Below, in pieces: positions 41,216 through 60,552 of a DNA stretch of 60,690 nt. Location: NCBI GenBank assembly GCA_964425105.1, contig CAYRLE010000001.1, forward strand, positions 1 to 60,690, written 5' to 3'. The DNA comes from an uncultured Gammaproteobacteria bacterium (lineage in GTDB: Bacteria > Pseudomonadota > Gammaproteobacteria > SZUA-140). A model generated the notes under the pieces. That model worked only from the letters and a program-made list of their open reading frames with translations, did not search any database and was not told where the DNA came from. Numbering within the stretch: position 1 is the first letter of the stretch; each line of letters opens with the position of its first letter. A program made the translations under genes and the position numbers.

Positions 41216-41225
41216 GTCCGCCTCC

Positions 41226-42376: not shown

Positions 42377-42379
42377 AAT

Positions 42380-43302: not shown

Positions 43303-43315
43303 TAAAATCCGTTCC

Positions 43316-46114: not shown

Positions 46115-47997
46115 GGCTGCGCCACCTTCTTGTCCGCCGCCAGGTCGTAGATGCGTGCCAGGCCGAAGCGGGCCTGGACTTCATAGGCCCGCAGGCGTTC
46201 CTCGCGCTGGGCCAGGGTGCGCAGTACCAGAGTGCGCAGGTAGGCCTCGTGGTGTTCCTTGGCGGCGGTGACGCGCGCCTGCAGGTCTCCGAGGCGCGCC
46301 TGCAGCGTGGCGATACGCTGGTCGTAACCGGCGAAACCGCGCGGCGCCTGTTGCTTGGCCGCGGCCAGGCTGCGGCGTTGCTTGCCAGCTTCATCCAGGG
46401 CCGAATCCAGCGCCCTGAGGTGCTTGCGCAGCGTCCACAGCCGGGCCTTGTAGTCCTGGGCCAGGCGCCAGCGGTAGACACCTTGCAGCAGGCGCAGTTT
46501 TTCCCGCTGGGGGTTTAGGGCATCCTCTTCCCCGTGGCGCTGTAGCAGGGTGGCGGCCTTCTCCAGTCTGGCCTGGAGGCGCAGTTCCTTTGCCGTGGCC
46601 AGCGCCGTGGCATCTTCCCTGGCGGTGATGTCCCGCAGCTGGGCGGCATAAGCGTCGCGTTGGCGGCGCACCGCCGCCGGGTCCAGGCGCCGATAGCCGG
46701 CCTCGATGCGCGGTAGGCGCTGTTCATAGCCCAGGCGGCGCAGGGCCAGCATGTCCTGGAAGGCCGCGGTGTTGCGCTGCCAGCGTTCCAGGTCGCGCGC
46801 CAGGAAGCGCAGTTCGCGGTAATTGCGCAGCACGGCCTGAAATTCATTGCCCGCCAGCAGGCGCAGCAATTCGCTGTTTTGGGCCTCCGCCGGGGGATTG
46901 CGCAGCTGCCACAGCCAGCCGCGGCTCTTGTCCTCGTCCTTGCTCAGCAGCAGTTCGGCAATGCCCTGGTCACGAACCTCCTTGCCGAGGGCTCGGACGT
47001 GCTGCCGTTCCGCCACCAGGGCATCGACGGCCTGCTGGTAGCGCTGCGCTGCCTGGCCATAGACGCCGGCTTCCACGAGGGCATAGGGTATCGCGAGCAG
47101 GGCTTCCTGGACTGCAGGTTCCGTCACACTTCGCCCACTCAGTTCCTCCCAGGGCACCAGTGCCCGCGACAGTCTGCCAGCGGCGAATTCGGCCCAGCCC
47201 AGGCCCAGCAGGGCGGGAGCGGCGGACAGGCCCTGGAGACGGACCTGCTGCAGGCGCTGCGCGGCGTCTGCGGCCTGCCGGTCACGCAGATGGATATAGC
47301 CCAGGGCGAGATTGGCCTTGTCGCGCAGGGCCAGCAGTTCCTCGTCCTGTGTCTGCAGGGCGCCGACCTCGGCCAGTAGATCCAACCCTTCCGCGCGCTG
47401 TCCGTCGCGCACCAGGGCGACGCCCAGGTTGAAGCGGGCATAGGCAGCCCACAGGTGGGAGCGGGTGGGGGCGGCCAGCAGGCGCGCGGCACTTGTGTAG
47501 TCCCCCAGGTCCATCAACACCCGGCTGCGCAGCAGGCGGGCCTCGTCGCGCAGTTCCACGGGCAGCGCCTGCTCATGCACCTTGTCCAGGGCGGCGGCGG
47601 CCTTGTCGGCATAAGCGTTTCGCTGCCAGATCCTGGCCAGGTGGAACCATGCCTGATTGCGCAGCGCTGGGTCGTCATTTTGGTCCAGTAGCCGGGTGAA
47701 GACCCGTTCGGCCTGGTCATGGAGGCCATAGGAGAGCAGCAGGCCGCCTTCCAGCAATTCTGCCTCTACGCGGTGGTGAGGCAGCTGCCCGCGCTGCAGG
47801 GCAGCCTGGAGGCGAGTAATGGCGCTGAAATAGTCTTCCTGGTAAAAGTCGAACAGCACTTCTCCATAGGCCAGATCGCGCACCGCCTGGGGGTGGGGCG
47901 CGGCAGCGGCCTGCGGACCCAGCAGGGCCAGCATGAACAGCAGCAGGGAGAGATGCCGGTGGAGGCCCATGGCTCTGGGAGTAAGTTTCAGTCCCAT
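46111..47997 (-). CDS. Secreted TPR + coiled-coil protein (628 aa)
   Basis: Signal peptide (LSLLLFMLALLGPQAAA), an N-terminal TPR-like half and a C-terminal Arg/Leu/Ala-rich coiled coil. The start is ATG 47997 or ATG 47970. Confidence 0.7.
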   Translation of the reverse strand: MGLKLTPRAMGLHRHLSLLLFMLALLGPQAAAAPHPQAVRDLAYGEVLFDFYQEDYFSAITRLQAALQRGQLPHHRVEAELLEGGLLLSYGLHDQAERVFTRLLDQNDDPALRNQAWFHLARIWQRNAYADKAAAALDKVHEQALPVELRDEARLLRSRVLMDLGDYTSAARLLAAPTRSHLWAAYARFNLGVALVRDGQRAEGLDLLAEVGALQTQDEELLALRDKANLALGYIHLRDRQAADAAQRLQQVRLQGLSAAPALLGLGWAEFAAGRLSRALVPWEELSGRSVTEPAVQEALLAIPYALVEAGVYGQAAQRYQQAVDALVAERQHVRALGKEVRDQGIAELLLSKDEDKSRGWLWQLRNPPAEAQNSELLRLLAGNEFQAVLRNYRELRFLARDLERWQRNTAAFQDMLALRRLGYEQRLPRIEAGYRRLDPAAVRRQRDAYAAQLRDITAREDATALATAKELRLQARLEKAATLLQRHGEEDALNPQREKLRLLQGVYRWRLAQDYKARLWTLRKHLRALDSALDEAGKQRRSLAAAKQQAPRGFAGYDQRIATLQARLGDLQARVTAAKEHHEAYLRTLVLRTLAQREERLRAYEVQARFGLARIYDLAADKKVAQP

Positions 47998-48536
47998 TCC
48001 TTGACGATGAATTCGGGCTGCTGCCTGCTCTCCACGTCAACGATCTTCAGTTCCAGGTATTTGGGGCCCAGTTGTTTCTCGAAGGTGAGGGTCGCACCGC
48101 GGCGGTATTCCCGGCCCTCGGGGCCCAGCCCCGTGAAGAAGGCCACCAGTTCATGCTCACCAGCGCGCAGGTTGCCGAAGTAGATGCGCTGCACGCCGCC
48201 GCGGCGCAGGGCCTCCAGTTCACGACGGGTATAGAGATAATTGCTCACCACCTTGTCGTCGATTTTCACCTGCACGGCATCCAGCTTGAAGAATTCGCCG
48301 GTATCCAGGGACAGGAACACCGCCACCTGGGTGTTGGTGGGAAAGAGCAGTTCCTCCTCGAGGACGAACAACTCGCGGTTGATCTCCAGGATGTCTTTCT
48401 TGAGCGCCTGCACCTCGTCGTCCAGACTGTGGAAGTCCGCCGGCGCGGTGCTGTTTTCTGCTTGGGCCACGACGGAAAAGACACTGCCCAGAAGGAGCAG
48501 TGCCACAAGAGGGTAGAGCTTGATGCTGCGTTTCAT
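47988..48536 (-). CDS. Secreted protein (~182 aa): N-terminal short coiled coil + beta-rich domain, unknown function
   Basis: Signal peptide MKRSIKLYPLVALLLLGSVFSVVAQA, then DDEVQALKKDILEINRELFVLEEELLFP. First gene downstream of heptamer hairpin H1. Confidence 0.6.
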   Translation of the reverse strand: MKRSIKLYPLVALLLLGSVFSVVAQAENSTAPADFHSLDDEVQALKKDILEINRELFVLEEELLFPTNTQVAVFLSLDTGEFFKLDAVQVKIDDKVVSNYLYTRRELEALRRGGVQRIYFGNLRAGEHELVAFFTGLGPEGREYRRGATLTFEKQLGPKYLELKIVDVESRQQPEFIVKEWD

Positions 48537-48615
48537 GATGGGCCTCGCGGGCTGGTGGCGCATTTCGTGTTATAGAGTTTTTCGGCTGAATGATACTTTG
48601 GCTTGATTGAAAATC

Positions 48616-48694: not shown

Positions 48695-50293
48695 TCATAT
48701 CGTCCCACTGACAATGGGGTCGAAGGCAGTGAGGCTGTCCATGAGCGTGGCATTGCCCAGGCCGTGGCCGGGGAACAGGAGGGGGAAGTTGCCCTGTTCG
48801 CCGTGCAGGGCCAGGTAGTTGAGGATCACGGTCTCCACCAGCAGGTTGACGTTGTTGGCCGCCGGGCTGGAGGCGGTCTCCACCGAACCGTCGGAGCGAA
48901 AGTAGCCCAGTTGCTGGTGCTGCTCCGGCGCCAGGCTGTCGCCGCTGAACAACTGGGGACGGCCGCCGGGATGATAGACGAGGAAGAAGGCGGCGGCGGT
49001 GGAGGAGTTGTCGCCGGTCCACACGCCCTTGCCGCGGCCTTCCGAGGAATTGTCCACGGCTCCGTTGCTGGCCACGGAGCCGTCGCTGAACACGTAGAGC
49101 ATCAGCGGCACACCCACCCGCGCGGCGTATTCCAGGCAGGCGCCCATGCAGCGTCCGGCGCGCAGGTCGCGGATCTCGCCCACGGCTCGGTCGCCGGTAT
49201 GGTAGTCATAGCCGCCCATGGTGATGGTGCCGGCGCCGGCGAAGCCGTTGACGACCATTTTCATCACCGAGGCGGTCTTGCGGAACTCGCCATCGCTATC
49301 GAACTCCGCCTGGCTGAAGATGCCCGTAGGACCGACGATGTCGGGGTCCAGGGCGGGGTTGAGGGTGGAGGGGTCGCCGAAGCGGTCGGCGATGTCGGCG
49401 GCCTTGACGTAGCCGCAGCGCACCAGGTCCTTGATCACGGCATCCGCCGAGACCTTGGTGTCGACCTGCCCCAGCTTCATGTCGCTGATGCGTTCGATGG
49501 ATTCCATCACCGCCACAGCATCGGCCTGGTCCAGGACACCGATGAGTTGCCCGGTGTCCACCAGGCCGGTAACGTCCGAAGGGCGGTCCACCTTGGTGGG
49601 GCGCGCCGCCGCGTCCATCATGGTGGCCGGCGCCAGGGAGTTGCCGCCGGAGTCGGAGCTGCGTGAGCCGATGAGGCTCAGCAGGCTGCCGTCGGCGCCG
49701 GCGCGGTAGATGCCGTACATGGGGTTGTGGGGGTTGTTGCCGGTATCGTTGTCGGAGCGTGCCGGAATCACCGCGCCGTTGATATTGGCGCTGCGCCCGC
49801 CAGCCTTCTCCAGGATGCCACGCAGAAAGGCGCTGTCGGCGTGAAAGGACAGGCCCATATCGCTGTTGATGAAGTCGTTGAGGCCCGTCTGTGGATTGGT
49901 CAGGGGCGGGATCATGTCGCCCGGCAGGCCCTGTTTTCTGTAGCCGGCGCTGGTGAGGAAATCCAGCTGGCCGCCCTGCTTGCCCACCAGGACGTTGGAG
50001 CCGGCGATGTTGGCGCCGCCCGCCAGGTCGAAGCAGATGAAGGGGATCTTGCCCGCCCCCTGGGTGGCGATGCCGCAGCCGGTCTTCAGCGCCTCCAGAT
50101 CCGATGACAGGGCGGCATAGGCGGCGCGCGGGTTGGCAAACAGGCTGAGCACCGTGGGGGCGGTCACCAGGCCGAGGCCGGTGAGAAAGCCCTGGGCGAT
50201 GAACTCGCGGCGCGTCATGGGCCGCCGGTGATCGGGGTGGCGGAGGGGCTCGTCGGGTGACAGGAATTTGCGTCGTTTGGCCATGGTGGTCAT
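48695..50293 (-). CDS. Tat-signal periplasmic protein, DUF1501-like (sulfatase/phosphatase-fold family of unknown function)
   Basis: Twin-arginine motif (MTRREFIAQGFLTGLGLV), FICFDLAGGANIAG (compare the DUF1501 GG.D..N motif) and GGYDYHTGDR (compare GGWDTH). Confidence 0.7.
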   Translation of the reverse strand: MTTMAKRRKFLSPDEPLRHPDHRRPMTRREFIAQGFLTGLGLVTAPTVLSLFANPRAAYAALSSDLEALKTGCGIATQGAGKIPFICFDLAGGANIAGSNVLVGKQGGQLDFLTSAGYRKQGLPGDMIPPLTNPQTGLNDFINSDMGLSFHADSAFLRGILEKAGGRSANINGAVIPARSDNDTGNNPHNPMYGIYRAGADGSLLSLIGSRSSDSGGNSLAPATMMDAAARPTKVDRPSDVTGLVDTGQLIGVLDQADAVAVMESIERISDMKLGQVDTKVSADAVIKDLVRCGYVKAADIADRFGDPSTLNPALDPDIVGPTGIFSQAEFDSDGEFRKTASVMKMVVNGFAGAGTITMGGYDYHTGDRAVGEIRDLRAGRCMGACLEYAARVGVPLMLYVFSDGSVASNGAVDNSSEGRGKGVWTGDNSSTAAAFFLVYHPGGRPQLFSGDSLAPEQHQQLGYFRSDGSVETASSPAANNVNLLVETVILNYLALHGEQGNFPLLFPGHGLGNATLMDSLTAFDPIVSGTI

Positions 50294-50365
50294 ACCTCGC
50301 CCGTTGGTTCGTTATCGTTTGTCTTAGTATGTGTGGGTGCATGTGTTGCTGTATCCTCGTGGGAG

Positions 50366-50496
50366 GTAATGAGTGATGCGTGATGAGTAATGAGAGGAAG
50401 AACTGCTTTCCCGCCATGCCATCTGTCCTGTCCCTTCTCATCACCCATCACTCATCACCCATCACTCATTACCCATCACTCATTACTCACGTCACT
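50366..50496. repeat. Heptamer-built hairpin H2 (GT[A/G]ATGA x4 ... T[C/T]AC[C/T]CA x7)
   Basis: Left arm 50366-50393: gtaatga gtgatgc gtgatga gtaatga. Right arm 50441-50489: tcaccca tcactca tcaccca tcactca ttaccca tcactca ttactca. The right arm runs into the stop codon (50492-50494) of the LamG gene. Confidence 0.85.
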
Positions 50497-52984
50497 GCAG
50501 CAGCAACACCGCGCTGCCCAGCACCGCCGCGCAACTGGCCTTGACCACTTCTGTGGTGCGCGCCGTGGTGGCGCAGGTGGGTGTGGGGCCGGTGGCGCAG
50601 GCCGTGAGGCGGTCCATGAGATTGTTCAGTTCATTCTTCACGCTCAGCGCATCGGGCTGGGTGGCGACATTGTTGCCCAGACTCCGGCTCAGCAGGGGAT
50701 CGATAATCGAGTCGCGCTTGGCCACTGTGTCGAAGGCGGTGTCGGCCGCGGCCGTGAAATCGAAGCCGGAGAAATAGCTGGCCGCGGGCTGTTGGCCCTT
50801 GCCGTCCACCAGGGCACTGCAGTATTCGATGGCCAGTTGGGAGACCGCCATCTGGTGGGCGGAGAGGAAGCCTTCGATGTTCTCCACCGTGGGCAGCTGT
50901 TGCTTGACGGTGGTGAAGACGACCTGCACGTCGCCCTGGCTGGGGCTGACATCGGTGACCGCTGCCATGGTGGCGTGGATCTCCTCGAAAGTGCGCAGGC
51001 CGATGTCGGGCACGGGCGCGGCATCCGGCGGGGGAGGGGGCGTCAGGGGCGCCGGCTCGGTGATCACGTTGCTGTTGTCGCCCAGGGTCTCGAAGGTGAG
51101 GAAGAACTCGTCGGCCTCCGGTCCCTTCTCCAGGGCGATCACGGTGCCGAGGCGCGACAAGAGCTGGCCCTTGGCGCTGTCGTAGGCGCTGCCCCCCAGG
51201 GTGAGGTCCAGGTTGCGGTAGGCCTGGCCCACCACGGCCTCCTTGCCGTTGATGCCAATGCGCATGGCGCGCAGGGGGATGTTGGCGGGGCTGGCCTGGG
51301 GGTCGAGGCTGATGAAGGTGGGCTGGTTGAAGAGATAGCTGTAGTTGTCGAACTGGCTGACCTCGAAGAGGATGTAGCTCTGGGGCACGCCGATGAGGTC
51401 GCTGACGCCGAACAGCAGGAAGAACTTCTCGCCCACGCCGACTTTGAAATTCTGCAGGATCTGCTCAGGTGTCAGGGCGCGGTTGTGAATGGCCACCAGG
51501 CGCAGCTTGCCCTGCCACAGGCGGTCGCCGGAGACCTCGTTGCCCAGCACGAAGGCGAAACTGTCGTCCCAGTCGCTGAGGTTGCCGCCGGCGACATTGT
51601 CCAGGTCGCCGGTGAACTGGCCGTTGACATAGATGCGCCGTCCGTTGGCCGGGTCGTAGGTGACCACCACATGCTGTTGGGTGGCCTGCAGCACTTCGGC
51701 GGCATCGGCGGTGGACAGGGCCGGCTCGCCGTTGCCGTCGGTGGTGCTGGAACGGTGCAGAAAGTCGTAGTTGTAGAGGGTCTGGCCCAGAGTGAAGTTG
51801 CGCGCCTGGGTGCCGGCGGAATAGCTGATGATACGCGCCGGGCCTTCCTGGGTGACATTGGCGGGCACCACCCAGGCCTCGATGGAGTATTCGCCGGTGG
51901 CGGTGATGAGGTCGTGGAGTTTCTTGCTGGCCGTGGTGCTGCCCTGGGCCTTGCCATCGATGATCTCGATGCCCCAGCCGCCGACCCAGTTGACGTTGCC
52001 GCTTAAGCTCAGGTGCAGGCCGGGTTCCACGCCGCTGGTGTCGTAGGCGGTGGTGCCCTGGCCGGTCTTGAATTCGTAGAGGGCGATGACATTGTCTTCC
52101 ACGCGGCTGCCGCCGCTGGCAATGATGCCGTCGGTCAGGCGCAGCGCCTTGCTGATCACCAGTTGGGGGGCCACCTGGGTCAGAGGCACCGTGGCAGCGA
52201 AGGCCTGGATGGCGGCCTCCATGTCGTTGGCGTCGTTCTGGCAGTCGCTGCTCCAGCAGTTGTGGAATTCATTGCGCAGGCGTACCACGAGGCGCGAATT
52301 GGCGGGATTGTCCAGGTCCATCTTGGCCTTGGCGGCCTCGTAGGCGGCGTCCACGTCGCTGCCCGCGAAGAAGGGCGCCTGGGGGGTGGCCGAGGATTCG
52401 CTGTGGCAGCCAGCGCAGTTGGCCGTGAGCAGAGGATGGACGGTGGTGGCGAAGTCGCTTGAGGCGGCAGGGAAGCTCTTGCTGGCGCCGGGATCCTTGT
52501 CCACCGGCGCCTTGAGTTCGATCTGGCGCCCGCCGCCGGCGCCCACGCCGCTGGCCCAGGCCTCGATATAGGCGGTGATCACCGCGCCGCAGGCGCTGTC
52601 GGCGGCCAGCCAGCAGTTGTGGCCGCCCGCCACCTTGCTCACCAGGCGCGAGTCGGCGGGCGAGTCCAGGTTCACCAGGGGATTGACGGCGCCATAGGCG
52701 AGATTGATATCGTCGCTGCGCACGAAGGCCGGCGAGGCGGGACCGTCCTGGCCATGGCAGGCGCCGCAGCGGTTGCCGGCGCTGAGATTGTCCCAGATAT
52801 TGAGTTTGAAGTTCTGCACGTCGCTGGTGGCGGGTGCCGGGCCACTATAGCTCACGCCTTGGGTATTGCTGTCGCGGGAGGGCAGGGGCTCGGTGGTGGC
52901 GCCGCCGCCACAGCCCGCCAGGATCAGGGCTGCGGCCAGCAGCATCAGACGTGCGCTCAGGGCAAAACGGGATCGGTTCATCAT
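50492..52984 (-). CDS. Secreted lipoprotein with two tandem CxxCH modules + LamG/concanavalin-like domain + long C-terminal region
   Basis: Lipobox LILAGCGG; CGACH and CAGCH; LamG-like core (ALYEF..G..AYD.SG..LHL.L.G.V.W....G..I..G.........GEYSIEAWV.P......ARIISYS....RNFTLGQ...LWQGKLRLVAIHNRALT). The ATG at 52984 overlaps the upstream stop (TGATG). Confidence 0.8.
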   Translation of the reverse strand: MMNRSRFALSARLMLLAAALILAGCGGGATTEPLPSRDSNTQGVSYSGPAPATSDVQNFKLNIWDNLSAGNRCGACHGQDGPASPAFVRSDDINLAYGAVNPLVNLDSPADSRLVSKVAGGHNCWLAADSACGAVITAYIEAWASGVGAGGGRQIELKAPVDKDPGASKSFPAASSDFATTVHPLLTANCAGCHSESSATPQAPFFAGSDVDAAYEAAKAKMDLDNPANSRLVVRLRNEFHNCWSSDCQNDANDMEAAIQAFAATVPLTQVAPQLVISKALRLTDGIIASGGSRVEDNVIALYEFKTGQGTTAYDTSGVEPGLHLSLSGNVNWVGGWGIEIIDGKAQGSTTASKKLHDLITATGEYSIEAWVVPANVTQEGPARIISYSAGTQARNFTLGQTLYNYDFLHRSSTTDGNGEPALSTADAAEVLQATQQHVVVTYDPANGRRIYVNGQFTGDLDNVAGGNLSDWDDSFAFVLGNEVSGDRLWQGKLRLVAIHNRALTPEQILQNFKVGVGEKFFLLFGVSDLIGVPQSYILFEVSQFDNYSYLFNQPTFISLDPQASPANIPLRAMRIGINGKEAVVGQAYRNLDLTLGGSAYDSAKGQLLSRLGTVIALEKGPEADEFFLTFETLGDNSNVITEPAPLTPPPPPDAAPVPDIGLRTFEEIHATMAAVTDVSPSQGDVQVVFTTVKQQLPTVENIEGFLSAHQMAVSQLAIEYCSALVDGKGQQPAASYFSGFDFTAAADTAFDTVAKRDSIIDPLLSRSLGNNVATQPDALSVKNELNNLMDRLTACATGPTPTCATTARTTEVVKASCAAVLGSAVLLLQ

Positions 52985-54162
52985 CAATCACCCATGCAGT
53001 AGACGGCGGCCTCGGCGAAGACCTGTTTCAGATTGTAGTTGCTGGCCTTGAAGGATGCGGTGATGGCTGCGATCTTGCTGCGGTCCGCACTGTTGCCTGG
53101 CTCGCGGAAGCACACGGCCTTGAAGACCTTCTTTACCTGGCAGCTGGCGAAGGCCGCGCTGTTCTCCAACTCCATGCCCATGCTCTTGGCGCCCTGGCCG
53201 CTGCCGGTCAGGGCACTGTCCCAGCCCAGCAGGGCATTGGGGCCGCTGCGCCAATAGTTGTCCCAGCGGTCGTCGGGGGTGATGTAGCCGTATTTGAAGT
53301 TGTCGGCGTTGATCAGGTATTTGGGCTGCACTGCGCCGGGGGTGTAGACGAGGCGCCCGGCGTCCTCGTCGTAGTCGTAGTAGGCATAGGCCTGGGTCAG
53401 CGGGTCCATGCCGCTGTGGCAGCCCACGCAGCTGTTGAGAAAGATGCGGCTGTCACCGCCGGGGCTGCGCGAGACGTCCTGGCGTATGCGGTCCGAGGGC
53501 CGGGTGTTGTCCTTGATCTGTTCCAGGTCGGTGCACAAATGGTTGAGCAGGGTGAAGCGGAACATGGCGCGGTTGGTGCCATCGATGAAAAAGGCCTTGG
53601 CGGCGGCGCGGGTGGTCATGACGCCCGCAGTGGCCGCGGCGGGGAGTCCGGTGAGCGCCGACTGGCTGCTGGGCACCAGCATGGCCTTGAGGTCGATGCC
53701 CTGGTTTTCCAGGGCCGCGTAGTGGTCGTTGTTGTCCACGGCATAGGGGGGCAGGCCCAGGGCCGGGTCGCCCACGTAGAGCAGATCAGCGGAGAGCAGG
53801 GTGTTGAAGGGCACGTTGTCGCGGACCATGCCGATCACTGTGGCGGTATAGTCGTTGAGAGGCGCGAAGACGGTCTGTTCCTCATTGGTCCAGGGGGTGA
53901 CGAAATTCTTCAGCGTGACGTTATAGAAGGCGCTGTTCTCCATGGCCGTGAAGGCGGCGTCCTCGGGACGGCCGGCGGCGATGTCCGCGGCCATGGCATC
54001 CAGTACCGCCGCGCTAGGCGGCACGCCGGCAAGGCGGTCGTGGAGACGCTTGGCCTGTTCGCGGTTGCCGGACCAGGCCGGGGAGGCAGCCAGTATCAGC
54101 AGCAAGGCGCTCAGGAAATAAAGCGTCAGGGCCGGCTGTTTGCTTGGTGTCGATGAATTCAT
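52984..54162 (-). CDS. Secreted CxxCH protein, DUF1588/PSD-family-like (Planctomycete-type cytochrome-associated domain)
   Basis: Signal peptide (LTLYFLSALLLILAASPAWS); FIDGTNRAMFRF.LLNHL.C; FLNSCVGCHSGMDPL. ATG at 54162 is chosen; the ORF-track extension to 54399 is not protein-like. Confidence 0.65.
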   Translation of the reverse strand: MNSSTPSKQPALTLYFLSALLLILAASPAWSGNREQAKRLHDRLAGVPPSAAVLDAMAADIAAGRPEDAAFTAMENSAFYNVTLKNFVTPWTNEEQTVFAPLNDYTATVIGMVRDNVPFNTLLSADLLYVGDPALGLPPYAVDNNDHYAALENQGIDLKAMLVPSSQSALTGLPAAATAGVMTTRAAAKAFFIDGTNRAMFRFTLLNHLCTDLEQIKDNTRPSDRIRQDVSRSPGGDSRIFLNSCVGCHSGMDPLTQAYAYYDYDEDAGRLVYTPGAVQPKYLINADNFKYGYITPDDRWDNYWRSGPNALLGWDSALTGSGQGAKSMGMELENSAAFASCQVKKVFKAVCFREPGNSADRSKIAAITASFKASNYNLKQVFAEAAVYCMGD

Positions 54163-54531
54163 GTGTCGTAGTGCTCTATGTTGGGTCCACGTGCGCCATG
54201 GGTTTCCCTGTGTTCTTGTAACGGCCGCTGCGCTTTTCACGCAAGACCGAGGAGTTCCTGCATTATGCAGGAAGCCGGGGAAGTTTTTGTGATTGGCTGC
54301 GCAGTTTGCCCCGTCGCCGCTGGCGGATAATGCAAACAGTGATGCCGTTCTCTCCAGCCAAGCAATCCCCCGGCCGCTGTCATAGAATGGCAGCGGCATG
54401 GCGGCTGGCGCTTATGGAGAAAATCACGCCTCCTCAACGTTAAACAAGCCGAAGTTAGAGATAATCTTGTTTTATTTTGTCTCTATTGCTCATTTGAATT
54501 CTAAGACGGAGATGCCAGCGGATTGGTTGCA
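54163..54531. promoter_or_regulatory. Divergent control region between the minus-strand operon and the beta-propeller gene
   Basis: About 370 nt non-coding between divergently oriented genes. Includes an AT-rich block (54440-54510: gttagagataatcttgttttattttgtctctattgctcatttgaattc). No operator identified. Confidence 0.4.
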
Positions 54532-57120
54532 ATGACGAAGAAATCCGACAGGATACCTGCGGCAATGGCCGTGATTTTGTCGTTTACTGTTTTACTGCTG
54601 GCTGCCTGTGGCGGGGGCGAGGGTGTGGACCCGGTGGTGGAGAATTTCGGCATCGCCTACGTGGTGCGCCCCTTGCCCGAGGATGGCAACAGCGACAGCC
54701 GCGAGTTGTTGGACTTCAAGGCCGGTGGCGATCTCTATTACCGCGACCTGGCCTCGCCGGGAGCCCGTGCGCGCAATATCACCGCAGACGTGACCGGCGG
54801 CCAGGGCGACGTGCGCGACGTGAGCGTCTCCTATGACGGCAGCAGGCTGTTGTTCGCCCTGCGTCTGCCTTCGATCGAGGGCGCCGATCCTGAGGACCAG
54901 CCCACGTGGAACATCTGGGAATACGATATCAGCGAAGACCGCCTGCGGCGCATCATCGCCTCCGATATCACCGCCGAGGCGGGCCAGGACCGCTCCCCCC
55001 AATACCTGCCCGACGGGCGCATCGTCTTCAGTTCCACGCGCCAGCGCCAGGCCAAGGCCACCCTGCTGGACGAAGGCAAGCCCCAGTTCGCGGCCCTGGA
55101 CGAGCGGCGCCGGGAGCCGGCCTTCGTGCTCCATGTGATGGAGGCCGATGGCAGCGATATCCGCCAATTGTCCTTCAATCAGAGCCATGACCTGGACCCG
55201 GTGGTGCTGGCCAGTGGTGAGATTCTCTTCAGCCGTTGGGACAACATGGGAGGGCGCAACCAAGCGAGCCTCTACAAGATCCGGCCCGACGGCACCGGCC
55301 TGGAAGTGGTCTACGGCGCCCACAGCCATGCCGGCGACAGCGGACAGTTGCAGTTCCTGCGTCCCCGGGAAATGCCCGATGGCCGCCTGCTGGCCCTGCT
55401 CAAACCTTTTCGCAGCCCCTATGGCGGCGCCGACCTGATCACCATCGATATTGCCAATTTTGTCGATAATGACCAGCCTGCCGCCGACGGGTCAGCGGGC
55501 GACAGCGCCCAACAGCCGGCCACTATCCTGAAGGTAAGCACCGGCAGCGGCCCATCGGCCGGCGGCCGCTTCAGTGCCGCCTTTCCCCTCTGGGACGGTA
55601 CCGTCCGCGCCTTGGTGAGTTGGACGCCCTGCCGCCTGCAGGCGGTGGATGGCCGCATCCTGCCCTGCACACCGGCACGTCTGGCCGAGCCCGATGTCCA
55701 GGAGGCCCCCCCGCTCTATGGCCTCTATCTCTACAATATGGATGACGACACCCAGGTGCCGCTGCTGGTGCCCCGCGAGGGCGTGATTTACACCGATGTG
55801 GTGGCTGCTCAGCAGCGCCGCCTGCCCGCCATCCTGGCCGATCGCAGCCTGGATGCCGATCTGGCGGAGGAGGGTGCGGGGGTGCTCGACATCCGCAGCG
55901 TCTATGATTTCGACGGTGTCTTCAATGGCCTGGGCGCGGCGGCTGCCGATATCGCCGAACTGGCGGACCCGGCGCGCACCCCGGCCGATGGGCGTCCCGC
56001 GCGCTTTCTGCGGGTGGTGAAGGCGGTGGCCATTCCCGACCGCAATCTGGTGCGGCTGCGGGGCACGGCCTTCGGGCGCAGCAGCCGCCAGCTGATGCGG
56101 GAGATCGTCGCCTACGCACCCATCGAGCCCGACGGCTCGGTGAAGATCAAGGTGCCCGCCAACGTGCCGCTGGCCATCAGCGTCCTGGACAAGGATGGCC
56201 GGCGCATCAGCAACCGCCACCAGAACTGGATCCAGCTGCGCCCTGGCGAGACCGTCACCTGCAACGGCTGCCACGACCACAACAGCGGTATTCCCCACGG
56301 CACCCCGCGGGGACCCGCGGCCCTCAACAGCGGCGCCGCCACCACGGGCCTGCCCTTTCCCAACACCGACCCCGCCCTGTTCGCCGACATGGGTGAGACC
56401 ATGGCCGAGACCCGCACCCGGCTGGATGCCGCGGCGCTGACGCCCAGCGTCGACCTGGTCTATGAGGATGTCTGGACGGATGAGACGGCAGCGGGGCGGG
56501 GCAAAGACACGCCTTTCGCCTACCGCTACGGCGACCTGGCCACCCCGGCGCCGGCGCCGTCCGCCTGCCAGACGGCCTGGAGCCCGGCCTGCCGCATCGT
56601 GATCCATTACGAGACCCACATCCACCCACTGTGGGGCCGGGACCGCGGCGCCGATACCTGCACCCTGTGCCATGGCAGCCGCGACGCCATGGACAATCTG
56701 CAGGTGCCGGCAGCGCAACTAGACCTCAGTGACGGCGCCTCCAGCGACCAGCCCGCTCATTTCACCTCTTATCGGGAACTACTGTTCAACGACAATGAGC
56801 AGGAGATCGTCATGGGCGCCCTGCAGGACCGCCTGGTGCAGGCCACCGACGGCAACGGCAATCCCTTGTTCGAGACCGACGAGAACGGCGATCTCATCCT
56901 CGATGCCGCAGACAATCCCATTCCAGTGATGGTGACCGTCACCGTGCGCCCGGTGATGTCCACGGCTGGCGCTTTAGCCAGCAGCCGTTTCTTCGAGCTC
57001 TTCGCTCCCGGCGCCAGCCATGCCGGGCGCCTGGAGCCGGCGGAATTGCGCCTCATCGCCGAGTGGCTGGACATCGGAGCCCAGTACTACAATGACCCCT
57101 TTGCCGTGCCGCCGCCTTGA
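54532..57120 (+). CDS. Lipoprotein: TolB/PD40-like beta-propeller + C-terminal region with two CxxCH motifs (hydrazine-synthase-alpha 'middle domain'-like architecture)
   Basis: Lipobox LLLAACGG. PD40-like repeats (VSYDGSRLLFA; PQYLPDGRIVFSS; ILFSRWDN; YKIRPDGTGLEVV). CNGCH and CTLCH lie in the last ~280 aa. Confidence 0.75.
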   Translation: MTKKSDRIPAAMAVILSFTVLLLAACGGGEGVDPVVENFGIAYVVRPLPEDGNSDSRELLDFKAGGDLYYRDLASPGARARNITADVTGGQGDVRDVSVSYDGSRLLFALRLPSIEGADPEDQPTWNIWEYDISEDRLRRIIASDITAEAGQDRSPQYLPDGRIVFSSTRQRQAKATLLDEGKPQFAALDERRREPAFVLHVMEADGSDIRQLSFNQSHDLDPVVLASGEILFSRWDNMGGRNQASLYKIRPDGTGLEVVYGAHSHAGDSGQLQFLRPREMPDGRLLALLKPFRSPYGGADLITIDIANFVDNDQPAADGSAGDSAQQPATILKVSTGSGPSAGGRFSAAFPLWDGTVRALVSWTPCRLQAVDGRILPCTPARLAEPDVQEAPPLYGLYLYNMDDDTQVPLLVPREGVIYTDVVAAQQRRLPAILADRSLDADLAEEGAGVLDIRSVYDFDGVFNGLGAAAADIAELADPARTPADGRPARFLRVVKAVAIPDRNLVRLRGTAFGRSSRQLMREIVAYAPIEPDGSVKIKVPANVPLAISVLDKDGRRISNRHQNWIQLRPGETVTCNGCHDHNSGIPHGTPRGPAALNSGAATTGLPFPNTDPALFADMGETMAETRTRLDAAALTPSVDLVYEDVWTDETAAGRGKDTPFAYRYGDLATPAPAPSACQTAWSPACRIVIHYETHIHPLWGRDRGADTCTLCHGSRDAMDNLQVPAAQLDLSDGASSDQPAHFTSYRELLFNDNEQEIVMGALQDRLVQATDGNGNPLFETDENGDLILDAADNPIPVMVTVTVRPVMSTAGALASSRFFELFAPGASHAGRLEPAELRLIAEWLDIGAQYYNDPFAVPPP

Positions 57121-57217: not shown

Positions 57218-57955
57218 ATGCAAATCCCTGCCTTGTTATTGATGATGGCATTGTGCCTGGCGACGAACGCCTTGGCTGCCAAGCCAGCAGTGGAAGCGGA
57301 AGTGGCGGACCCCTATCTGGAACTGCACACCGGGCCGGGCGCGGCCTATCCGGTTTTCTATGTGGTGGAGCGAGGCAGCAAGGTGCGCATCCTCAAGCGC
57401 CGCACTGGCTGGTTCAAGGTGCGCAGCGCCAAGGGCAAGGAGGGCTGGGCCGCGCGCAGCGACATGGAGCAGACACTGCTGGCCGCCGGCGTCCCCTTGC
57501 GCATCGCGGAGCCGGGGCGTGGCGAATTCAGCGCCCGGCGCTGGGAGATGGGAGTCCTGGGCGGCGATTTCGAAGGAGCCGACTCCATCACCCTGTATGG
57601 CGGCTATGCCTTCAATGCCAATTTGTCGGCGGAGTTATCAGTGGCACAGATACTGGGAGATTTTTCGGACAGCATCCTGGCGAATGTCAATGTGCTGGTC
57701 CAGCCCTTCCCCCGCTGGCGGGCCTCGCCCTTTTTCACCCTGGGCACGGGGGTCATCGACACCAATGCCCGCAAGACCGTGGTGGAGGCCCAGGACAGCA
57801 CGGACCAGGTCAGTCACGTGGGGGCAGGCCTGCGGGCCTATCTGGGGCGGCGCTTCATCTTCCGCGCCGAATACAGGAATTACGTGATCTTCACCAGTAG
57901 AGACGACAACAAGGAAATCGACGAATGGCGCGCTGGCTTCGCATTCTTTTTCTGA
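57218..57955 (+). CDS. Outer-membrane protein: N-terminal bacterial SH3 domain + C-terminal beta-barrel
   Basis: Signal peptide; SH3b-like (LELHTGPGAAYPVFYVVERGSKVRILKRRTGWFKVRSAKGKEGWA). Alternating-strand C-terminal half ending ..WRAGFAFFF (aromatic OMP terminus). Confidence 0.7.
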   Translation: MQIPALLLMMALCLATNALAAKPAVEAEVADPYLELHTGPGAAYPVFYVVERGSKVRILKRRTGWFKVRSAKGKEGWAARSDMEQTLLAAGVPLRIAEPGRGEFSARRWEMGVLGGDFEGADSITLYGGYAFNANLSAELSVAQILGDFSDSILANVNVLVQPFPRWRASPFFTLGTGVIDTNARKTVVEAQDSTDQVSHVGAGLRAYLGRRFIFRAEYRNYVIFTSRDDNKEIDEWRAGFAFFF

Positions 57956-58581
57956 AACGCTTTGCCGCTGAATTTGGGGCGGGGCTGGCGTTATTGCTGT
58001 TGGTGGCGCCGGCACTGGCCGGGCAGGAGCAAGTCATCGAACCGCAGTTGGAGCGCCGCGACATCAACGTGCCGAAGATCGACAGCGAGAATTTCGAGAT
58101 CGGCCTCTTCGGCGGCGTCATGAGCGTGGAGGACTTCGGCACCAGCCCGGTCTATGGCGCGCGCGCGGCCTATCACGTCACCACGGGCTTGTTCGTGGAG
58201 GCCGCCTACGGGCGCACCGACACCGATGAGACCAGCTACGAGAAACTCAGCGGGGGCGCCAAACTGCTCACCGACAGCGAGCGCCAGTTGAGTTATTACA
58301 ACTTCTCTTTGGGTTACAATCTGCTGCCGGGAGAGACCTTCCTCACCCGCAGGCTCGCCTTCACTTCCGATTTCTATGTCATCGCAGGTATCGGCAGCAC
58401 CGACTTCGCCGGCGATCAGCGCTTTACCGTCAACTACGGCGCCGGCTACCGGCTGCTGGCCACGGACTGGCTGGCGGTCCATGTGGATGTCCGCGACCAC
58501 TTGTTCGATTCGGACCTGCTGGGTGAGACCAAGACTACGCACAATATTGAGATCAGTGGCGGACTGACGGTCTTTTTTTGA
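57925..58581 (+). CDS. Outer-membrane beta-barrel domain protein
   Basis: Signal peptide (LALLLLVAPALA), beta-strand periodicity and the terminal ..EISGGLTVFF. Overlaps the previous gene by 31 nt. Confidence 0.7.
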   Translation: MARWLRILFLKRFAAEFGAGLALLLLVAPALAGQEQVIEPQLERRDINVPKIDSENFEIGLFGGVMSVEDFGTSPVYGARAAYHVTTGLFVEAAYGRTDTDETSYEKLSGGAKLLTDSERQLSYYNFSLGYNLLPGETFLTRRLAFTSDFYVIAGIGSTDFAGDQRFTVNYGAGYRLLATDWLAVHVDVRDHLFDSDLLGETKTTHNIEISGGLTVFF

Positions 58582-58680: not shown

Positions 58681-59202
58681 ATGAGGTGTCACATGAATTT
58701 ACGAATGAACAAACTGGCAGGCTATATCCTGCTCCTTGTGGCCATGCTGCTGCTGGCAGGCGCTGCCGTAGCCAAGGAGGTCTCGGGCCCGGCCCCTGAC
58801 TTCACCCTCAAGAGCCGCGGCGGCGAGAACCTCAAGCTCAGCGAATTCCGCGGTGAGGTGGTGATGATCAACTTCTGGGCCTCCTGGTGCGGTCCCTGCC
58901 GCAAGGAGATGCCCCTCCTGGATCAGCTCTACCAGCGCTATCATCCCCTGGGCTTCACCATTCTCGGTGTCAACGTGGAAGAGGATTCGGAAGAGGCATT
59001 GCGCCTGTTGAAGGAAATCCCCGTGACCTTCCCCATTCTCTTCGATCGCGACAACAAGGTTTCGGAGACCTATGAACTGGTGGCCATGCCCACCACGGTG
59101 ATGGTGGACCGCGACGGCAACATGCGTTTCGTCCACCTCGGCTATGTCCCCGGCTACGAACGGGAATACGAAGCCCAGATCAAGGCCCTGATCCGGGAGT
59201 GA
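58681..59202 (+). CDS. TlpA/ResA-family periplasmic thiol:disulfide oxidoreductase
   Basis: Signal anchor, thioredoxin fold and the active site WASWCGPCRKEMP. ATG 58693 is an alternative start. Confidence 0.85.
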   Translation: MRCHMNLRMNKLAGYILLLVAMLLLAGAAVAKEVSGPAPDFTLKSRGGENLKLSEFRGEVVMINFWASWCGPCRKEMPLLDQLYQRYHPLGFTILGVNVEEDSEEALRLLKEIPVTFPILFDRDNKVSETYELVAMPTTVMVDRDGNMRFVHLGYVPGYEREYEAQIKALIRE

Positions 59203-59420
59203 GCATGCGCCCCGTATTCCTGCTTGTGATGTTGCTGCTACTGGGAGGCTGCGGAATCAAGCCCTGGGTGAAACCCTACGAGCGTCACCGGCTGGCGGAC
59301 CCCATCATGAGTTTCAGCCGCGATCCGGTGTCCACGGCCTATAGCAACCACGTCTACGAGGCCCGCGAAGGGGCGCGCGGCGCAGAAGGCAGCCAGGGTG
59401 GGGGTTGTGGCTGCAATTAG
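59199..59420 (+). CDS. DUF4266 lipoprotein
   Basis: Lipobox LLLLGGCG and the family-typical C-terminus GGGCGCN. ATGA-type overlap with tlpA. Confidence 0.75.
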   Translation: MSMRPVFLLVMLLLLGGCGIKPWVKPYERHRLADPIMSFSRDPVSTAYSNHVYEAREGARGAEGSQGGGCGCN

Positions 59421-60552
59421 GGGCAGACACCTGCTGGCGGGCCTGCTGGCGGCCCAGGGGTTGCTGGTGCCCCTGCTAGCGGCCGTGCTCCCCGAGGACC
59501 GCGCCGACGCCCTCTATCATTCTTATGATGGCGGCGGGGTGGAGGTCAACGGTCCGTCCATTTTGCTGCGCAAGCAAGTGGGCAAGTACAGTTCCTTTTC
59601 CGCCAACTACTATGTCGATTCCATCACCAGCGCCTCCATCGACGTGGTGACCGCCGCCAGTCCTTACGAGGAGCAGCGGGTGGAGAAGAGCATCGGCGGC
59701 GATTTCCTGTTCGACAAGACCATCATGAGCCTGGGTTTCACCAGCAGCGAGGAAAACGACTTCGATGCCAAGTCCGCCGCCTTCAGCATCAGCCAGGACC
59801 TGTTCGGCGACCTCACCACCGTCACCCTGGGCTATGTGCGCGGCTGGGACAAGATCGGCAAGCGCGGCGACCCGGCCTTCTCGGAAGACGCCGACAGCCA
59901 GCGCTACCGCATCGGCATCAGCCAGATCTTCACCAAGAACCTGATCGTGGCCCTGAACTTCGAGACGGTCACCGACGAGGGCTTCCTCAACAACCCGTAC
60001 CGCTCGGTGCGCTTCCGAGACCCTGGCAGCGCCCTGGGTTACAGCTTCGAGCCCGAGGTCTATCCCCGCACCCGCACCAGCAACGCCATCGCCCTGCGCA
60101 GCCGCTACTATCTGCCCTACCGCGCATCGCTGCTGGGGGAATACCGCTACTACAACGACAGCTGGGGCATCGGCGCCCACAACATCGGCCTGGGTTACAC
60201 CCACGCCTGGCGCGAGCACTGGCTGTTCGACCTCAAGTACCGCTACTACACCCAGGGCCACGCCGACTTCTACAGCGACCTCTTTCCCTACAGCCAAGCC
60301 CAGAACTTCCTGGCCCGCGACAAGGAGTTGAGCCGCTTCAGCAGCCACACGCTGGGCTTCGCCCTGAGCTATGAAGTCAGCCCCAAGGACTGGAGTTTCA
60401 TCGATCGCGGCAGCGTGAATCTTTCGTATGACCGCATCTTTTTCGACTACGACGACTTCCGCGACCTCACCAGTGGCGGCAGCGCCGGGCAGGAGTCACT
60501 CTACAGTTTCAATGCCGACGTGCTGCAGCTGTATATTTCCCTTTGGTATTAG
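59398..60552 (+). CDS. DUF3570 protein (predicted outer-membrane beta-barrel)
   Basis: N-terminal ..DRADALYHSYDGGGVEVNGPS.., Y/F-rich alternating strands and the terminal ..LQLYISLWY. The DUF4266-DUF3570 pairing is typical. Confidence 0.75.
   Translation: MGVVAAIRGRHLLAGLLAAQGLLVPLLAAVLPEDRADALYHSYDGGGVEVNGPSILLRKQVGKYSSFSANYYVDSITSASIDVVTAASPYEEQRVEKSIGGDFLFDKTIMSLGFTSSEENDFDAKSAAFSISQDLFGDLTTVTLGYVRGWDKIGKRGDPAFSEDADSQRYRIGISQIFTKNLIVALNFETVTDEGFLNNPYRSVRFRDPGSALGYSFEPEVYPRTRTSNAIALRSRYYLPYRASLLGEYRYYNDSWGIGAHNIGLGYTHAWREHWLFDLKYRYYTQGHADFYSDLFPYSQAQNFLARDKELSRFSSHTLGFALSYEVSPKDWSFIDRGSVNLSYDRIFFDYDDFRDLTSGGSAGQESLYSFNADVLQLYISLWY

Follow-up and report, generated by a model that had tools for sequence, protein, structure and literature searches.

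In the 60,690-nucleotide stretch of DNA that we analyzed (the window), four genes for exported proteins, P1 to P4, belong to a larger, strongly conserved gene block of marine and sediment Gammaproteobacteria. On balance, we favor the view that they supply the heme and enzyme half of a redox system in the cell envelope; this system would comprise at least ten genes and be inherited as a block. The cluster is most likely an extracytoplasmic thiol-flavin-heme electron-transfer system around a conserved Tat-exported metalloenzyme. A literature search turned up no paper on this cluster.

A sequence-only reading of the window had described four exported proteins around a divergent promoter. Reading the ORFs places all four where they had been reported, and a periplasmic redox module, as then suggested, remains the best reading of the quartet. 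That earlier account was incomplete: it drew the unit too small and missed the invariable downstream partners.

Four exported proteins with conserved CxxCH motifs

The quartet and its intergenic region are arranged as follows.

48695..50293, minus strand: P1 (ORF)
50492..52987, minus strand: P2 (ORF)
52984..54162, minus strand: P3 (ORF 52984-54399; probable start at 54162)
54163..54531, no strand: intergenic region that separates the divergent P3-P2-P1 and P4 blocks
54532..57120, plus strand: P4 (ORF 54523-57120; probable start at 54532 or 54565)

The stop of P3 and the start of P2 overlap by 4 bp. The 369-bp gap (54163-54531) does separate two divergent operons, but the claimed promoter was not recovered: a search for a sigma-70-like site in this gap found none, and Rfam gave no match there.

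The four proteins contain five CxxCH motifs (CVGCH in P3, CGACH and CAGCH in P2, and CNGCH and CTLCH in P4), while 0.007 would be expected from amino-acid composition. In alignments with 65-67 orthologs from other species (40-80% identity), the Cys and His of all five motifs are 100% conserved, and so are the lipobox cysteines of the two lipoproteins (C26 and C29). The twin-arginine motif is invariant across about 65 species. All of these motifs are as the earlier reading had described them, and it was also right that there is no classical small cytochrome among the four proteins. From the heme-c-type motifs, we predict that P2, P3, and P4 have heme attached.

P3 is a secreted protein of about 392 amino acids with a monoheme motif, whose C245, C248, and H249 (mature-ORF numbering) are invariant. 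It had been called PSD-like. PSD2 (DUF1585) matches P3 from the window with E = 0.0095, which is below Pfam's threshold. When we scanned 22 members of the family, PSD2 matched 20 (best 1.3e-5) and PSCyt3 matched 14, so the similarity is consistent, but every match was below the gathering score. We regard P3 as a remote relative of the PSCyt3 (DUF1588) plus PSD2 (DUF1585) proteins.

The lipoprotein P2 combines two CxxCH modules in tandem with a LamG domain and a C-terminal half without an assignment. The LamG call is secure: the match to Laminin_G_3 (E = 9.5e-23) is above Pfam's gathering score, and the domain was found in 20/20 orthologs. Cytochrome_CBB3 matches weakly in 18 of the 20. The invariant residues are C74/C77/H78, H123, C191/C194/H195, and H242. 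In distant lineages, the parts of P2 are encoded by separate genes.

These proteins recall the PSCyt-PSD and DUF1501/DUF1552 pairs of Planctomycetes and Verrucomicrobia, in that a PSCyt3/PSD2-like P3 and a P2 with CxxCH and LamG lie beside a twin-arginine P1. In contrast to those pairs, all matches of P3 are below Pfam's thresholds and P1 is neither DUF1501 nor DUF1552 by HMM. Also, those organisms have dozens of paralogous pairs, whereas in Gammaproteobacteria the genes are single-copy per locus and are tied to flavinylation genes.

The constant partner is a flavin and outer-membrane block

What constantly accompanies the four genes is not the motor operon but the block that follows P4. This block encodes a pair of small outer-membrane barrels, a TlpA-like thioredoxin, DUF4266, DUF3570, and ApbE, and because of these genes we tie the quartet to known flavinylation systems.

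57218..57955, plus strand: SH3-domain and small outer-membrane beta-barrel protein (SH3_3, 1e-11; OMP_b-brl, 1.4e-8); in 64/80 loci
57925..58581, plus strand: small outer-membrane beta-barrel protein (TIGR04565 OMP_myx_plus, 3.2e-51, 173.5 bits with a cutoff of 60; OMP_b-brl); in 64/80 loci
58681..59202, plus strand: TlpA-like periplasmic thiol-disulfide oxidoreductase (Redoxin, 3.5e-29)
59199..59420, plus strand: DUF4266 small lipoprotein (ORF; C-terminal GGGCGCN, a CXC motif)
59398..60552, plus strand: DUF3570 protein, predicted flavin carrier (PF12094, 1.9e-37)

The two barrel genes overlap by 31 nt, and the product of the first has an FFF C-terminal end. The CxxC motif of the redoxin (C70/C73) is kept in 98% of 60 orthologs. 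PF14086 is recorded for DUF4266 on a near-identical JGI contig. Where flavinylation motifs would lie, DUF3570 has ..SAS80.. and ..AS88.., both invariant, with two invariant Ser sites. Presumably, the ApbE gene lies just past the end of the window, after DUF3570, as it does in four of the other loci. Across loci ApbE is linked but mobile: it may follow DUF3570, P1 directly (in either orientation), or the TonB gene.

We measured conservation of the block from two independent anchors, P1 in genomes and DUF3570 in metagenomes. All six upstream core genes were present in 55/60 of the P1-centered loci with enough flank, and P3, P4, and both barrels were present in 26/28 of the DUF3570-centered loci. 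In three distant lineages, P3-like, P2-like, and P1-like genes are co-located without flavin genes. P3-P2-P1 is an older, self-standing module, and its presence without flavin genes suggests that the heme half and the flavin half may have separable roles.

Trx-like, DUF4266, DUF3570, and ApbE proteins form a described type of flavinylation cluster; the CXC feature of DUF4266 has been described, and DUF3570 is an experimentally proven substrate of ApbE (PMC8238504). The window has the same gene set, with ApbE beyond its end and present in relatives, and it shares export, the CXC tail of DUF4266, and two modification-type motifs on DUF3570 with the published clusters (Meheust et al. 2021, eLife, PMC8238504). 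Unlike in those clusters, these genes are joined to four large heme-motif or metalloenzyme genes and to a pair of small outer-membrane barrels; a Glt-type motor is often attached as well. Also, there is no membrane electron-entry protein such as DsbD in the cluster, and the motifs of DUF3570 are SAS and AAS instead of the published [S/T]GA[S/T]. Meheust et al. (PMC8238504) left the role of DUF3570 systems open.

We propose that operon 1 would provide P3 (periplasmic, with one CxxCH), P2 (two CxxCH and a LamG ligand-binding domain), and P1 (the putative catalytic metalloenzyme), while the divergent operon 2 would provide P4, the two barrels, the TlpA-like thioredoxin, DUF4266, DUF3570, and ApbE, which would load DUF3570 with covalent FMN. 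Reducing equivalents would enter the periplasm by a thiol-disulfide relay, from a DsbD-type protein to the TlpA-like redoxin to DUF4266, and would travel on to the outer membrane, where DUF3570 would carry the flavins, and from there to the c-type hemes, five in all, on P4, P2, and P3. The electrons may end at, or start from, either the metal site of P1 or a substrate that the LamG and propeller domains bind.

A Glt-type motor adjoins some of the clusters

The window's P1 gene is followed, on the same strand, by a motor operon.

47988..48563, minus strand: h191, small secreted protein at the head of the motor operon (no family match; always precedes the TPR genes)
42670..47997, minus strand: three TPR proteins of 628, 932, and 230 amino acids (TPR families, YfiO/YbgF-like matches; conserved together)
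39765..42733, minus strand: motor genes (h117, ExbB/TolQ, two ExbD/TolR paralogs, TonB-like protein)
41732-42376, minus strand: ExbB/TolQ (MotA_ExbB, 2.2e-28)
41226-41735 and about 40718-41218, minus strand: two ExbD/TolR paralogs (ExbD, 1.6e-16; the second by BLAST)
39765-40721, minus strand: TonB-like protein with a GltG/GltJ-type C-terminal domain (NF033768 AgmX/PglI, 5.5e-19, 68.1 bits with a cutoff of 40)

This operon corresponds to the Agl/Glt "core complex of unknown function" from the literature; in Gammaproteobacteria, the function of that complex was stated as unknown (Luciano et al. 2011, PMC3169522). Both are single operons that encode one TolQ-like and two TolR-like proteins, three TPR proteins, a TonB-like protein whose C-terminal domain is of the AgmX/PglI (GltJ/GltG) type, and one further small protein. 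The TPR proteins are candidate GltE/GltD/GltC-like periplasmic scaffolds. h191 may be the additional gene of the complex; in motor operons that stand alone, its identity is 63-66%. h117 is another small secreted protein, encoded within the motor genes. Linkage to heme or flavin genes was not reported in PMC3169522.

The quartet had been described as wired to this operon: it would be a dedicated client, or the business end, that needs the TPR/ExbBD/TonB motor for its function. We consider this possible but doubtful. Roughly half of the sampled genomes have the motor next to the cluster, and the motor is also found on its own. On the side examined, it was beside the cluster in 21/52 P1-centered and 3/25 DUF3570-centered loci and absent from the other 31 and 22. 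This adjacency is far above chance, and it comes in three forms or more: the motor follows P1, follows ApbE or DUF3570, or is inverted. In two loci, the motor lies between P1 and ApbE, so that ApbE is past the motor; in another, the motor and the P4-to-DUF3570 block form one co-directional array. Motors that stand alone come with a TlpA-like redoxin of their own (42-44% identity to that of the cluster), and the paired barrels with a propeller lipoprotein recall a complex in the outer membrane of Myxococcus, GltA/B plus CglB (PMC11761067). But Alteromonadaceae have no motor beside P1 (in Alteromonas, P1 is followed by ApbE and then by unrelated genes), 3/4 motor-centered samples had no quartet within 10 kb, and the distant P3-P2-P1 modules lack such a motor. 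The described wiring is borne out in part only. In the electron-transfer system that we favor, the Agl/Glt-type TolQ-TolR-TonB-TPR machine would be an optional accessory, found in the same gene array in about half of the lineages sampled, that probably positions or energizes the outer-membrane part.

P1 is probably a metalloenzyme

P1 is a Tat-exported protein of about 530 amino acids, from a family without an existing model, and it is the most conserved member of the cluster (70-77% identity across orders of Gammaproteobacteria). At E <= 1e-3, the family has 1512 representatives of 50%-identity clusters. In an alignment of 75 sequences, down to 28% identity, RR (28-29), GG (92-93), and D-Y-H (363-365) are invariant, and along with D363 and H365, so are D183, a DG, D404, and D428.

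P1 has no match in Pfam or NCBIfam. It had been called DUF1501-like, which we reject: PF07394 (DUF1501) found 0/75 diverse family members, even at E <= 10, and P1 passed no HMM test for this family. DUF1552 had no HMM match to P1 either. What remains is a weak similarity to the alkaline-phosphatase fold. When the AF2 model (pLDDT 85.7) was compared to the PDB with Foldseek, the top 50 matches were all to the alkaline-phosphatase superfamily and were all weak (best E = 3.6e-3, TM-score about 0.2). P1 is probably an alkaline-phosphatase-fold metalloenzyme; given this type of fold and the invariant Asp and His residues, we take it to be the catalytic metalloenzyme of the system. No catalytic nucleophile was identified in P1.

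Since the only fold matches are to hydrolases and mutases of this superfamily, P1 might instead be a phosphatase-, sulfatase-, or phosphodiesterase-type enzyme for nutrient scavenging; the LamG and propeller domains would capture its polymers, and the CxxCH modules would be structural or sensory instead of carrying electrons. The strong LamG domain would fit, as would the hosts that degrade polysaccharides (Microbulbifer, Alteromonas, Paraglaciecola) and the proposed role of PSCyt/PSD genes of Verrucomicrobia in carbohydrate metabolism (PMC5615132). However, the cluster is equally conserved in sulfur-oxidizing symbionts and autotroph-like lineages (Thiodiazotropha, Sedimenticola, Thiogranum, and the symbionts of Riftia and Escarpia), and it is invariably linked to the electron-transfer parts ApbE, DUF3570, and thioredoxin. 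Also, no sulfatase motif (C/S-x-P-x-R) is visible in P1, and the cluster contains no glycoside hydrolases or TonB-dependent transporters. We view a scavenging hydrolase as unlikely.

P4 shares its domain order with hydrazine synthase

[quoted passage not shown] The earlier suggestion of an HzsA-like architecture is borne out. A profile of the P4 family matches the alpha subunit of hydrazine synthase from Kuenenia stuttgartiensis (PDB 5C2V, chain 5c2v_A) in three collinear segments (6.5e-16), with the same order of propeller, middle heme domain, and C-terminal heme domain, and CNGCH aligns with the CxxCH of heme alpha-I. But the alignment is good over about 65 residues only, P4 is a lipoprotein without beta or gamma partners, and Tyr591, which is the proximal ligand of heme alpha-I in HzsA (motif His plus 4; PMC12607021), is replaced by Ser in the P4 family. 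P4 belongs to the many "HZS_alpha domain-containing proteins" without a known function (PMC12758564). It is very improbable that P4 is the catalytic subunit of a hydrazine-synthase relative that acts on nitrogen oxides or hydroxylamine: despite the shared domains, the full-length HzsA model (NF052339) gives P4 just 39.7 bits with a cutoff of 800, the Tyr591 position differs, no beta or gamma subunit can be assigned among the small barrels, redoxin, DUF4266, and DUF3570, and most hosts are aerobic heterotrophs or sulfur oxidizers.

As a putative electron-transfer system, the cluster is like MtrCAB-type conduits in function only: both combine heme lipoproteins with a barrel in the outer membrane and a heme protein in the periplasm. 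There is no homology, and the cluster differs in having five predicted hemes, a predicted covalent flavin on a barrel-type protein, and a Tat-exported putative metalloenzyme.

Four exported proteins with invariant CxxCH motifs

The sequence-only reading had described four exported proteins in this part of the window, and the ORF calls and the signal sequences bear it out. We will call them P1 to P4:

P1, 48695-50293, minus strand: long ORF with the twin-arginine signal TRREFI
P2, 50492-52987, minus strand: long ORF with a lipobox (LAGC)
P3, 52984-54399 (start at 54162, 392 aa, in the gene calls of a JGI contig), minus strand: Sec-type signal
P4, 54523-57120 (start at 54565 in the JGI contig calls; ATG at 54532 also possible), plus strand: lipobox (LAAC)

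The JGI contig is Ga0256750_1000044 (L081 among our loci; sample 3300023440). It is 99.97% identical to 42551-60284 of the window, and it extends ~42 kb past the window's right end.

The same reading had listed five heme-c-type CxxCH motifs: two each in P2 and P4 and one in P3. All five are there, and just 0.007 would be expected in P1-P4 from their cysteine and histidine content. From 80 species-level genome loci with a relative of P1, we aligned 65-67 orthologues of each protein (40-80% identity to the window's proteins). Each Cys and each His of the five motifs is 100% conserved. So are the lipobox cysteines of P2 and P4, the paired cysteines, and the candidate distal histidines (H123 and H242 of P2; H566, H592, and H833 of P4). 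This confirms the original observation: the CxxCH motifs are not due to chance. An Rfam search of the window gave no match.

The conserved unit includes a predicted flavinylation block

The unit had originally been drawn as these four genes plus a motor operon. The quartet is conserved, but the conserved unit is larger: a block of genes downstream of P4 is part of it.

3' of P4, plus strand: SH3 and outer-membrane barrel protein (domain matches)
3' of P4, plus strand: second small barrel (TIGR04565, 3.2e-51)
3' of P4, plus strand: TlpA-like redoxin with CxxC (Redoxin, 3.5e-29)
3' of P4, plus strand: DUF4266 lipoprotein, 73 aa, with a C-terminal CGC (CXC) (ORF and JGI contig record)
3' of P4, plus strand: DUF3570 (PF12094, 1.9e-37)

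Among 60 P1-centred loci with sufficient upstream flank, 55 contain P2, P3, P4, both barrels, and the redoxin, and in the other five the redoxin alone went undetected. With DUF3570 as an independent anchor, we found P3, P4, and both barrels in 26 of 28 metagenome loci with sufficient flank. When we clustered all of the flanking ORFs, no recurrent partner emerged beyond ApbE and the motor genes. One relative (L171) has an extra gene of 154 aa, with no Pfam match, between P4 and the SH3-barrel gene (3682-4146).

ApbE lies outside the window's own span. It is adjacent to the cluster in 22 related loci, plus L082 and L171. It is always near the cluster, and its position is variable: in Thiogranum and three metagenome loci, ApbE follows DUF3570; it comes directly after P1, in either orientation, in ~18 loci (including Alteromonas); and it follows the TonB gene in L003 and L024.

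ApbE has been shown to flavinylate DUF3570, and clusters of thioredoxin-like proteins, DUF4266, DUF3570, and ApbE have been described as an extracytosolic electron-transfer system that is widespread but has no known purpose (Meheust et al. 2021, PMC8238504). The block downstream of P4 has the same DUF3570, DUF4266 (with its CXC), and thioredoxin-like proteins, with ApbE seen in relatives. The two published flavinylation motifs are of the form [S/T]GA[S/T]. At those positions, the window's DUF3570 keeps two Ala-Ser sites; the pair is nearly invariant in the alignment, but the Gly is replaced (aligned motifs S-S-A-S80 and T-x-A-S88). We also considered whether this is a TonB-dependent uptake locus, and we rejected that reading because the cluster has no gene for a 22-strand receptor.

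P4 shares its architecture with HzsA

The likeness of P4 to HzsA of hydrazine synthase, which the sequence-only reading had pointed out, holds for the domain architecture. P4 matches HZS_alpha (PF18582) with 57.9 bits (cutoff 26.6; E = 1.5e-15), and this domain is precomputed for each of the 120 homologues listed. The PD40 score is just under the cutoff. A profile built from 25 orthologues of P4 matches HzsA (PDB 5c2v_A) with E = 6.5e-16. The three matching segments are collinear and cover a propeller blade, the middle domain together with its CxxCH, and the C-terminal helix.

The likeness does not extend further. The full-length HzsA model (NF052339) gives P4 39.7 bits, as compared to a cutoff of 800. 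In HzsA, the catalytic, proximal ligand of heme alpha-I is Tyr591, four residues past the motif's His587 (PMC12607021). The consensus of the P4 family is CxGCHxxxSxxPH, so that, if compared by spacing only, a serine takes the place of the tyrosine at +4 from the motif's His; an invariant His follows at +8. Furthermore, no genes for the HZS beta or gamma subunits lie beside P4, and there is no second propeller or heme subunit among its neighbours, which are the small outer-membrane barrels, the redoxin, DUF4266, and DUF3570. Given the full-length score, the serine, and the missing beta and gamma genes, we rejected the rival explanation of hydrazine-synthase-like nitrogen chemistry for the cluster.

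P1 is the most conserved protein of the cluster

P1 is 70-77% identical across Alteromonadaceae, Chromatiales-type sulfur oxidisers, Steroidobacteraceae, Woeseiaceae, Kangiellaceae, and Microbulbifer; across these lineages, identity in the remaining cluster proteins is 40-70%. This most conserved member matches no Pfam or NCBIfam model. Neither do ten distant relatives nor, weak Tat-signal matches aside, the 75 diverse members at E ≤ 10. Its relatives number at least 8,000 candidates at E ≤ 0.001 (all 8,000 that were scored passed); the family comprises 1,512 representatives of 50%-identity clusters at E ≤ 1e-3; and relatives are encoded in at least 583 matched stretches of a one-genome-per-species collection. 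In a tblastn search with P1, none of 72,556 plasmids gave a match at 1e-5. The one plasmid match at E ≤ 10 is spurious because it lies on the opposite strand to an annotated gene.

P1 had been described as DUF1501-like. PF07394 (DUF1501) gave no match at E ≤ 1 in the window's P1 or in 10 distant relatives, and no match at E ≤ 10 in 75 diverse members of the family. A regular expression for the DUF1501-type motif, GG[FWY]DxH, was run over 2.3 Mb of sequence and found solely a P1 orthologue. The RR of the twin-arginine signal is invariant in the 75 sequences. Tat-signal models match a few of these 75 weakly, and among PDB chains the family profile has weak matches to Tat-signal regions. When the PDB was searched by sequence with P1, P2, and P3, nothing came up past Tat-signal and lectin-domain noise.

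We modelled P1 with AF2 from the 75-sequence alignment (pLDDT 85.7; an earlier run on a shallow alignment of 20 sequences at ≥74% identity had pLDDT 42.6 and was discarded). The best 50 Foldseek matches of this model in the PDB are all from the alkaline-phosphatase superfamily, and they are weak (best E = 3.6e-3, TM-score ~0.2). They include cofactor-independent phosphoglycerate mutase, alkaline phosphatases, sulfatases, and LtaS. In a secondary-structure reading of the model, beta-strands are followed by D89, D363-x-H365, and D404, which presumably resembles the layout of the metal site in this superfamily. Because there are weak fold matches but no match to PF07394, "DUF1501-like" stands only as a motif and fold-level lead, and not as family membership.

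These fold matches would suit a less likely rival explanation, that the cluster is a hydrolytic nutrient-scavenging system; the linkage to ApbE, DUF3570, and a thioredoxin speaks against it. As for P1 being a type I sulfatase, we rejected this because the C/S-x-P-x-R motif is absent.

In public databases, members of the P1 family are named "hypothetical protein," "twin-arginine translocation pathway signal," or "general secretion pathway protein GspF." The last name appears in NCBI, nr, and UniRef records (P0007, P0010, P0019, P0076, P0106, and P0114 among our relatives). It looks like a propagated mis-annotation, since P1 is a soluble protein with a Tat signal and has no resemblance to GspF.

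P2, P3, and an older core module

The LamG domain that had been noticed in P2 is clear: Laminin_G_3 scores 81.5 bits (gathering cutoff 27.6; E = 9.5e-23) and is present in 20 of 20 orthologues. At the N-terminus of P2 are two modules with weak matches to class-I cytochrome c in 18 of the 20 orthologues, and residues 520-831 have no domain match.

P3 had been called PSD-like. The matches are consistent across 22 orthologues (PSD2/DUF1585 in 20, best 1.3e-5; PSCyt3/DUF1588 in 14, best 0.0063), but every one is below the gathering score. For instance, the window's P3 scores 16.5 bits for PSD2, versus a cutoff of 25.8. The CxxCH of P3 is invariant among the orthologues, and the P3-like gene is adjacent to a P1-like (Tat-signal) gene in all loci, including the distant L163-L165. 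Planctomycete-type PSCyt3/PSD2 proteins likewise have a conserved CxxCH and an adjacent gene for a Tat-signal partner. By these profile scores, P3 appears to be a remote relative of PSCyt3/PSD2 that lies outside the family as modelled.

More distant relatives of P1 (29-38% identity) are encoded on three unrelated contigs of 34-53% GC, each with a small module of P3-like, P2-part, and P1-like genes:

L163, 7901-15730
L164, 7908-11680
L165, 7333-12106

Each module comprises a P3-like CxxCH protein (E of 1e-100 or better with the family HMM), a small lipoprotein of ~220-250 aa that resembles the C-terminal domain of P2, and the P1-like protein. In two of the three contigs, the next gene encodes a lipoprotein with P2-type heme modules (290 or 1370 aa); the third contig breaks off within the next gene. 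P4, DUF3570, and a Glt-type motor are all missing near the three modules, so P3-P2-P1 is a self-standing ancient module. Also, the parts of P2 are separate genes in these lineages, which makes the window's P2 a fusion.

The motor operon is a recurrent neighbour

47988 down to 39765: motor genes, encoding in order a small secreted protein; TPR proteins of 628, 932, and 230 aa; a second small secreted protein; one ExbB/TolQ; two ExbD/TolR; and a TonB-like protein

These genes have MotA_ExbB and ExbD matches, and the second ExbD paralogue was also found. At its C-terminus, the TonB-like protein has a domain that scores 68.1 bits (cutoff 40) with the AgmX/PglI (GltJ/GltG) model NF033768. The three TPR proteins are of suitable size to be candidates for GltD, GltE, and GltC; there is a partial match to the NCBIfam model for GltE (42.8 bits, cutoff 225). 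By gene content, the motor fits the Agl/Glt core complex of Luciano et al. (PMC3169522), who stated that the function of that complex was unknown: a TolQ-like protein, two TolR-like proteins, and a TonB-like protein with a GltG/GltJ-type domain are common to both. The two ExbD/TolR paralogues span 40718-41735. The 250-aa ORF at 40718-41470 extends too far and runs into the first paralogue in a different frame, and the second paralogue likely starts at the Met at ~41218.

The quartet had been said to be wired to this operon. Of 52 loci that have 6 kb of flank or more, 21 have the motor after P1. Among 25 DUF3570-centred loci, three have it after DUF3570 or ApbE, and the same order is seen in Thiogranum. 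It is inverted in L035, while in L171 a single co-directional array of ~17 genes runs from ApbE to TonB. When we started from the motor instead, one of four samples was joined to the cluster and three were not. Given these counts and the several arrangements, the association in the gene order is real and recurrent, but it is not obligatory. A rival explanation, to which we give less weight than to the main reading, is that the cluster is an obligate client of the motor; the recurrence speaks for it, and the motor-centred samples that lack the cluster speak against it.

Two of the three unjoined motors come with a separate TlpA-like redoxin, which shares 42-44% identity with that of the cluster (L168 6895-7404; L169 6930-7442). 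In L030, L048, and L078, a second redoxin match lies just upstream of the match to h191, the small secreted protein that heads the motor. Thus, the motor has a connection of its own to periplasmic thiol redox, apart from the quartet.

A proposed role in electron transfer

What has to be explained is the gene content of the cluster, its conservation, the export signals, the invariant cofactor motifs, and the linkage to DUF3570, a proven substrate of flavinylation, and to the transferase ApbE. From these we infer a mechanism. A periplasmic thiol relay (the TlpA-like redoxin and DUF4266) would feed the covalent flavins of DUF3570 at the outer membrane, and electrons would move via the five predicted c-type hemes in P4, P2, and P3. 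The end point or source would be either P1, as a putative Tat-exported metalloenzyme, or a ligand bound to the LamG and propeller domains. The Glt-type motor would have an accessory role, in which it positions the outer-membrane components or supplies them with energy.

The role of the Agl/Glt core complex outside the gliding myxobacteria has been an open question since 2011, and a link between this cluster and that question is credible but unproven. A bolder reading, which we consider unlikely, is that the core complex originally served an outer-membrane redox complex, with the motor coupled to the barrels, the heme lipoproteins, and flavinylated DUF3570, and that P1 represents a new class of metalloenzyme. 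In detail, and just as doubtfully, a TolQR/TonB-like motor powered by protons and equipped with a TPR scaffold would provide mechanical coupling, and the thiol-flavin-heme chain would feed P1 in the periplasm.

Every part of the cluster is of a known kind. In the literature on HzsA-like proteins in Gammaproteobacteria, DUF1585/1588, and DUF3570, we found no paper on the joined cluster or on the P1 family. The cluster physically joins three gene sets that have so far been studied apart, none with a known function: DUF3570/ApbE flavinylation, the PSCyt/PSD-like heme proteins with their Tat-exported partner, and the Agl/Glt core complex of Gammaproteobacteria. The joined block is found in hundreds of species, including chemosynthetic symbionts and the cultivable and tractable Alteromonas, Paraglaciecola, Microbulbifer, and Pseudoalteromonas. 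A phenotype in one tractable host could be the first for all three gene sets together.

Surroundings of the cluster

Elsewhere in the window are two signalling genes of an ordinary kind that have no apparent connection to the cluster: a Cache-HAMP-PAS-GGDEF-EAL protein (10921-13743) and a Cache-PAS hybrid histidine kinase with a receiver domain (24132-27203). Two ORFs of 884 aa (3213-5867, minus strand) and 344 aa (34505-35539, plus strand) have no Pfam match at 1e-5 and may not be real genes, as the DNA is GC-rich. Convergent with the TonB-like gene, at 36754-39768, are genes for an AMP-binding enzyme, an iron-containing redox enzyme of the Haem_oxygenas_2 type, and a short-chain dehydrogenase. 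Because these genes are not conserved beside the cluster elsewhere, they mark its left border.
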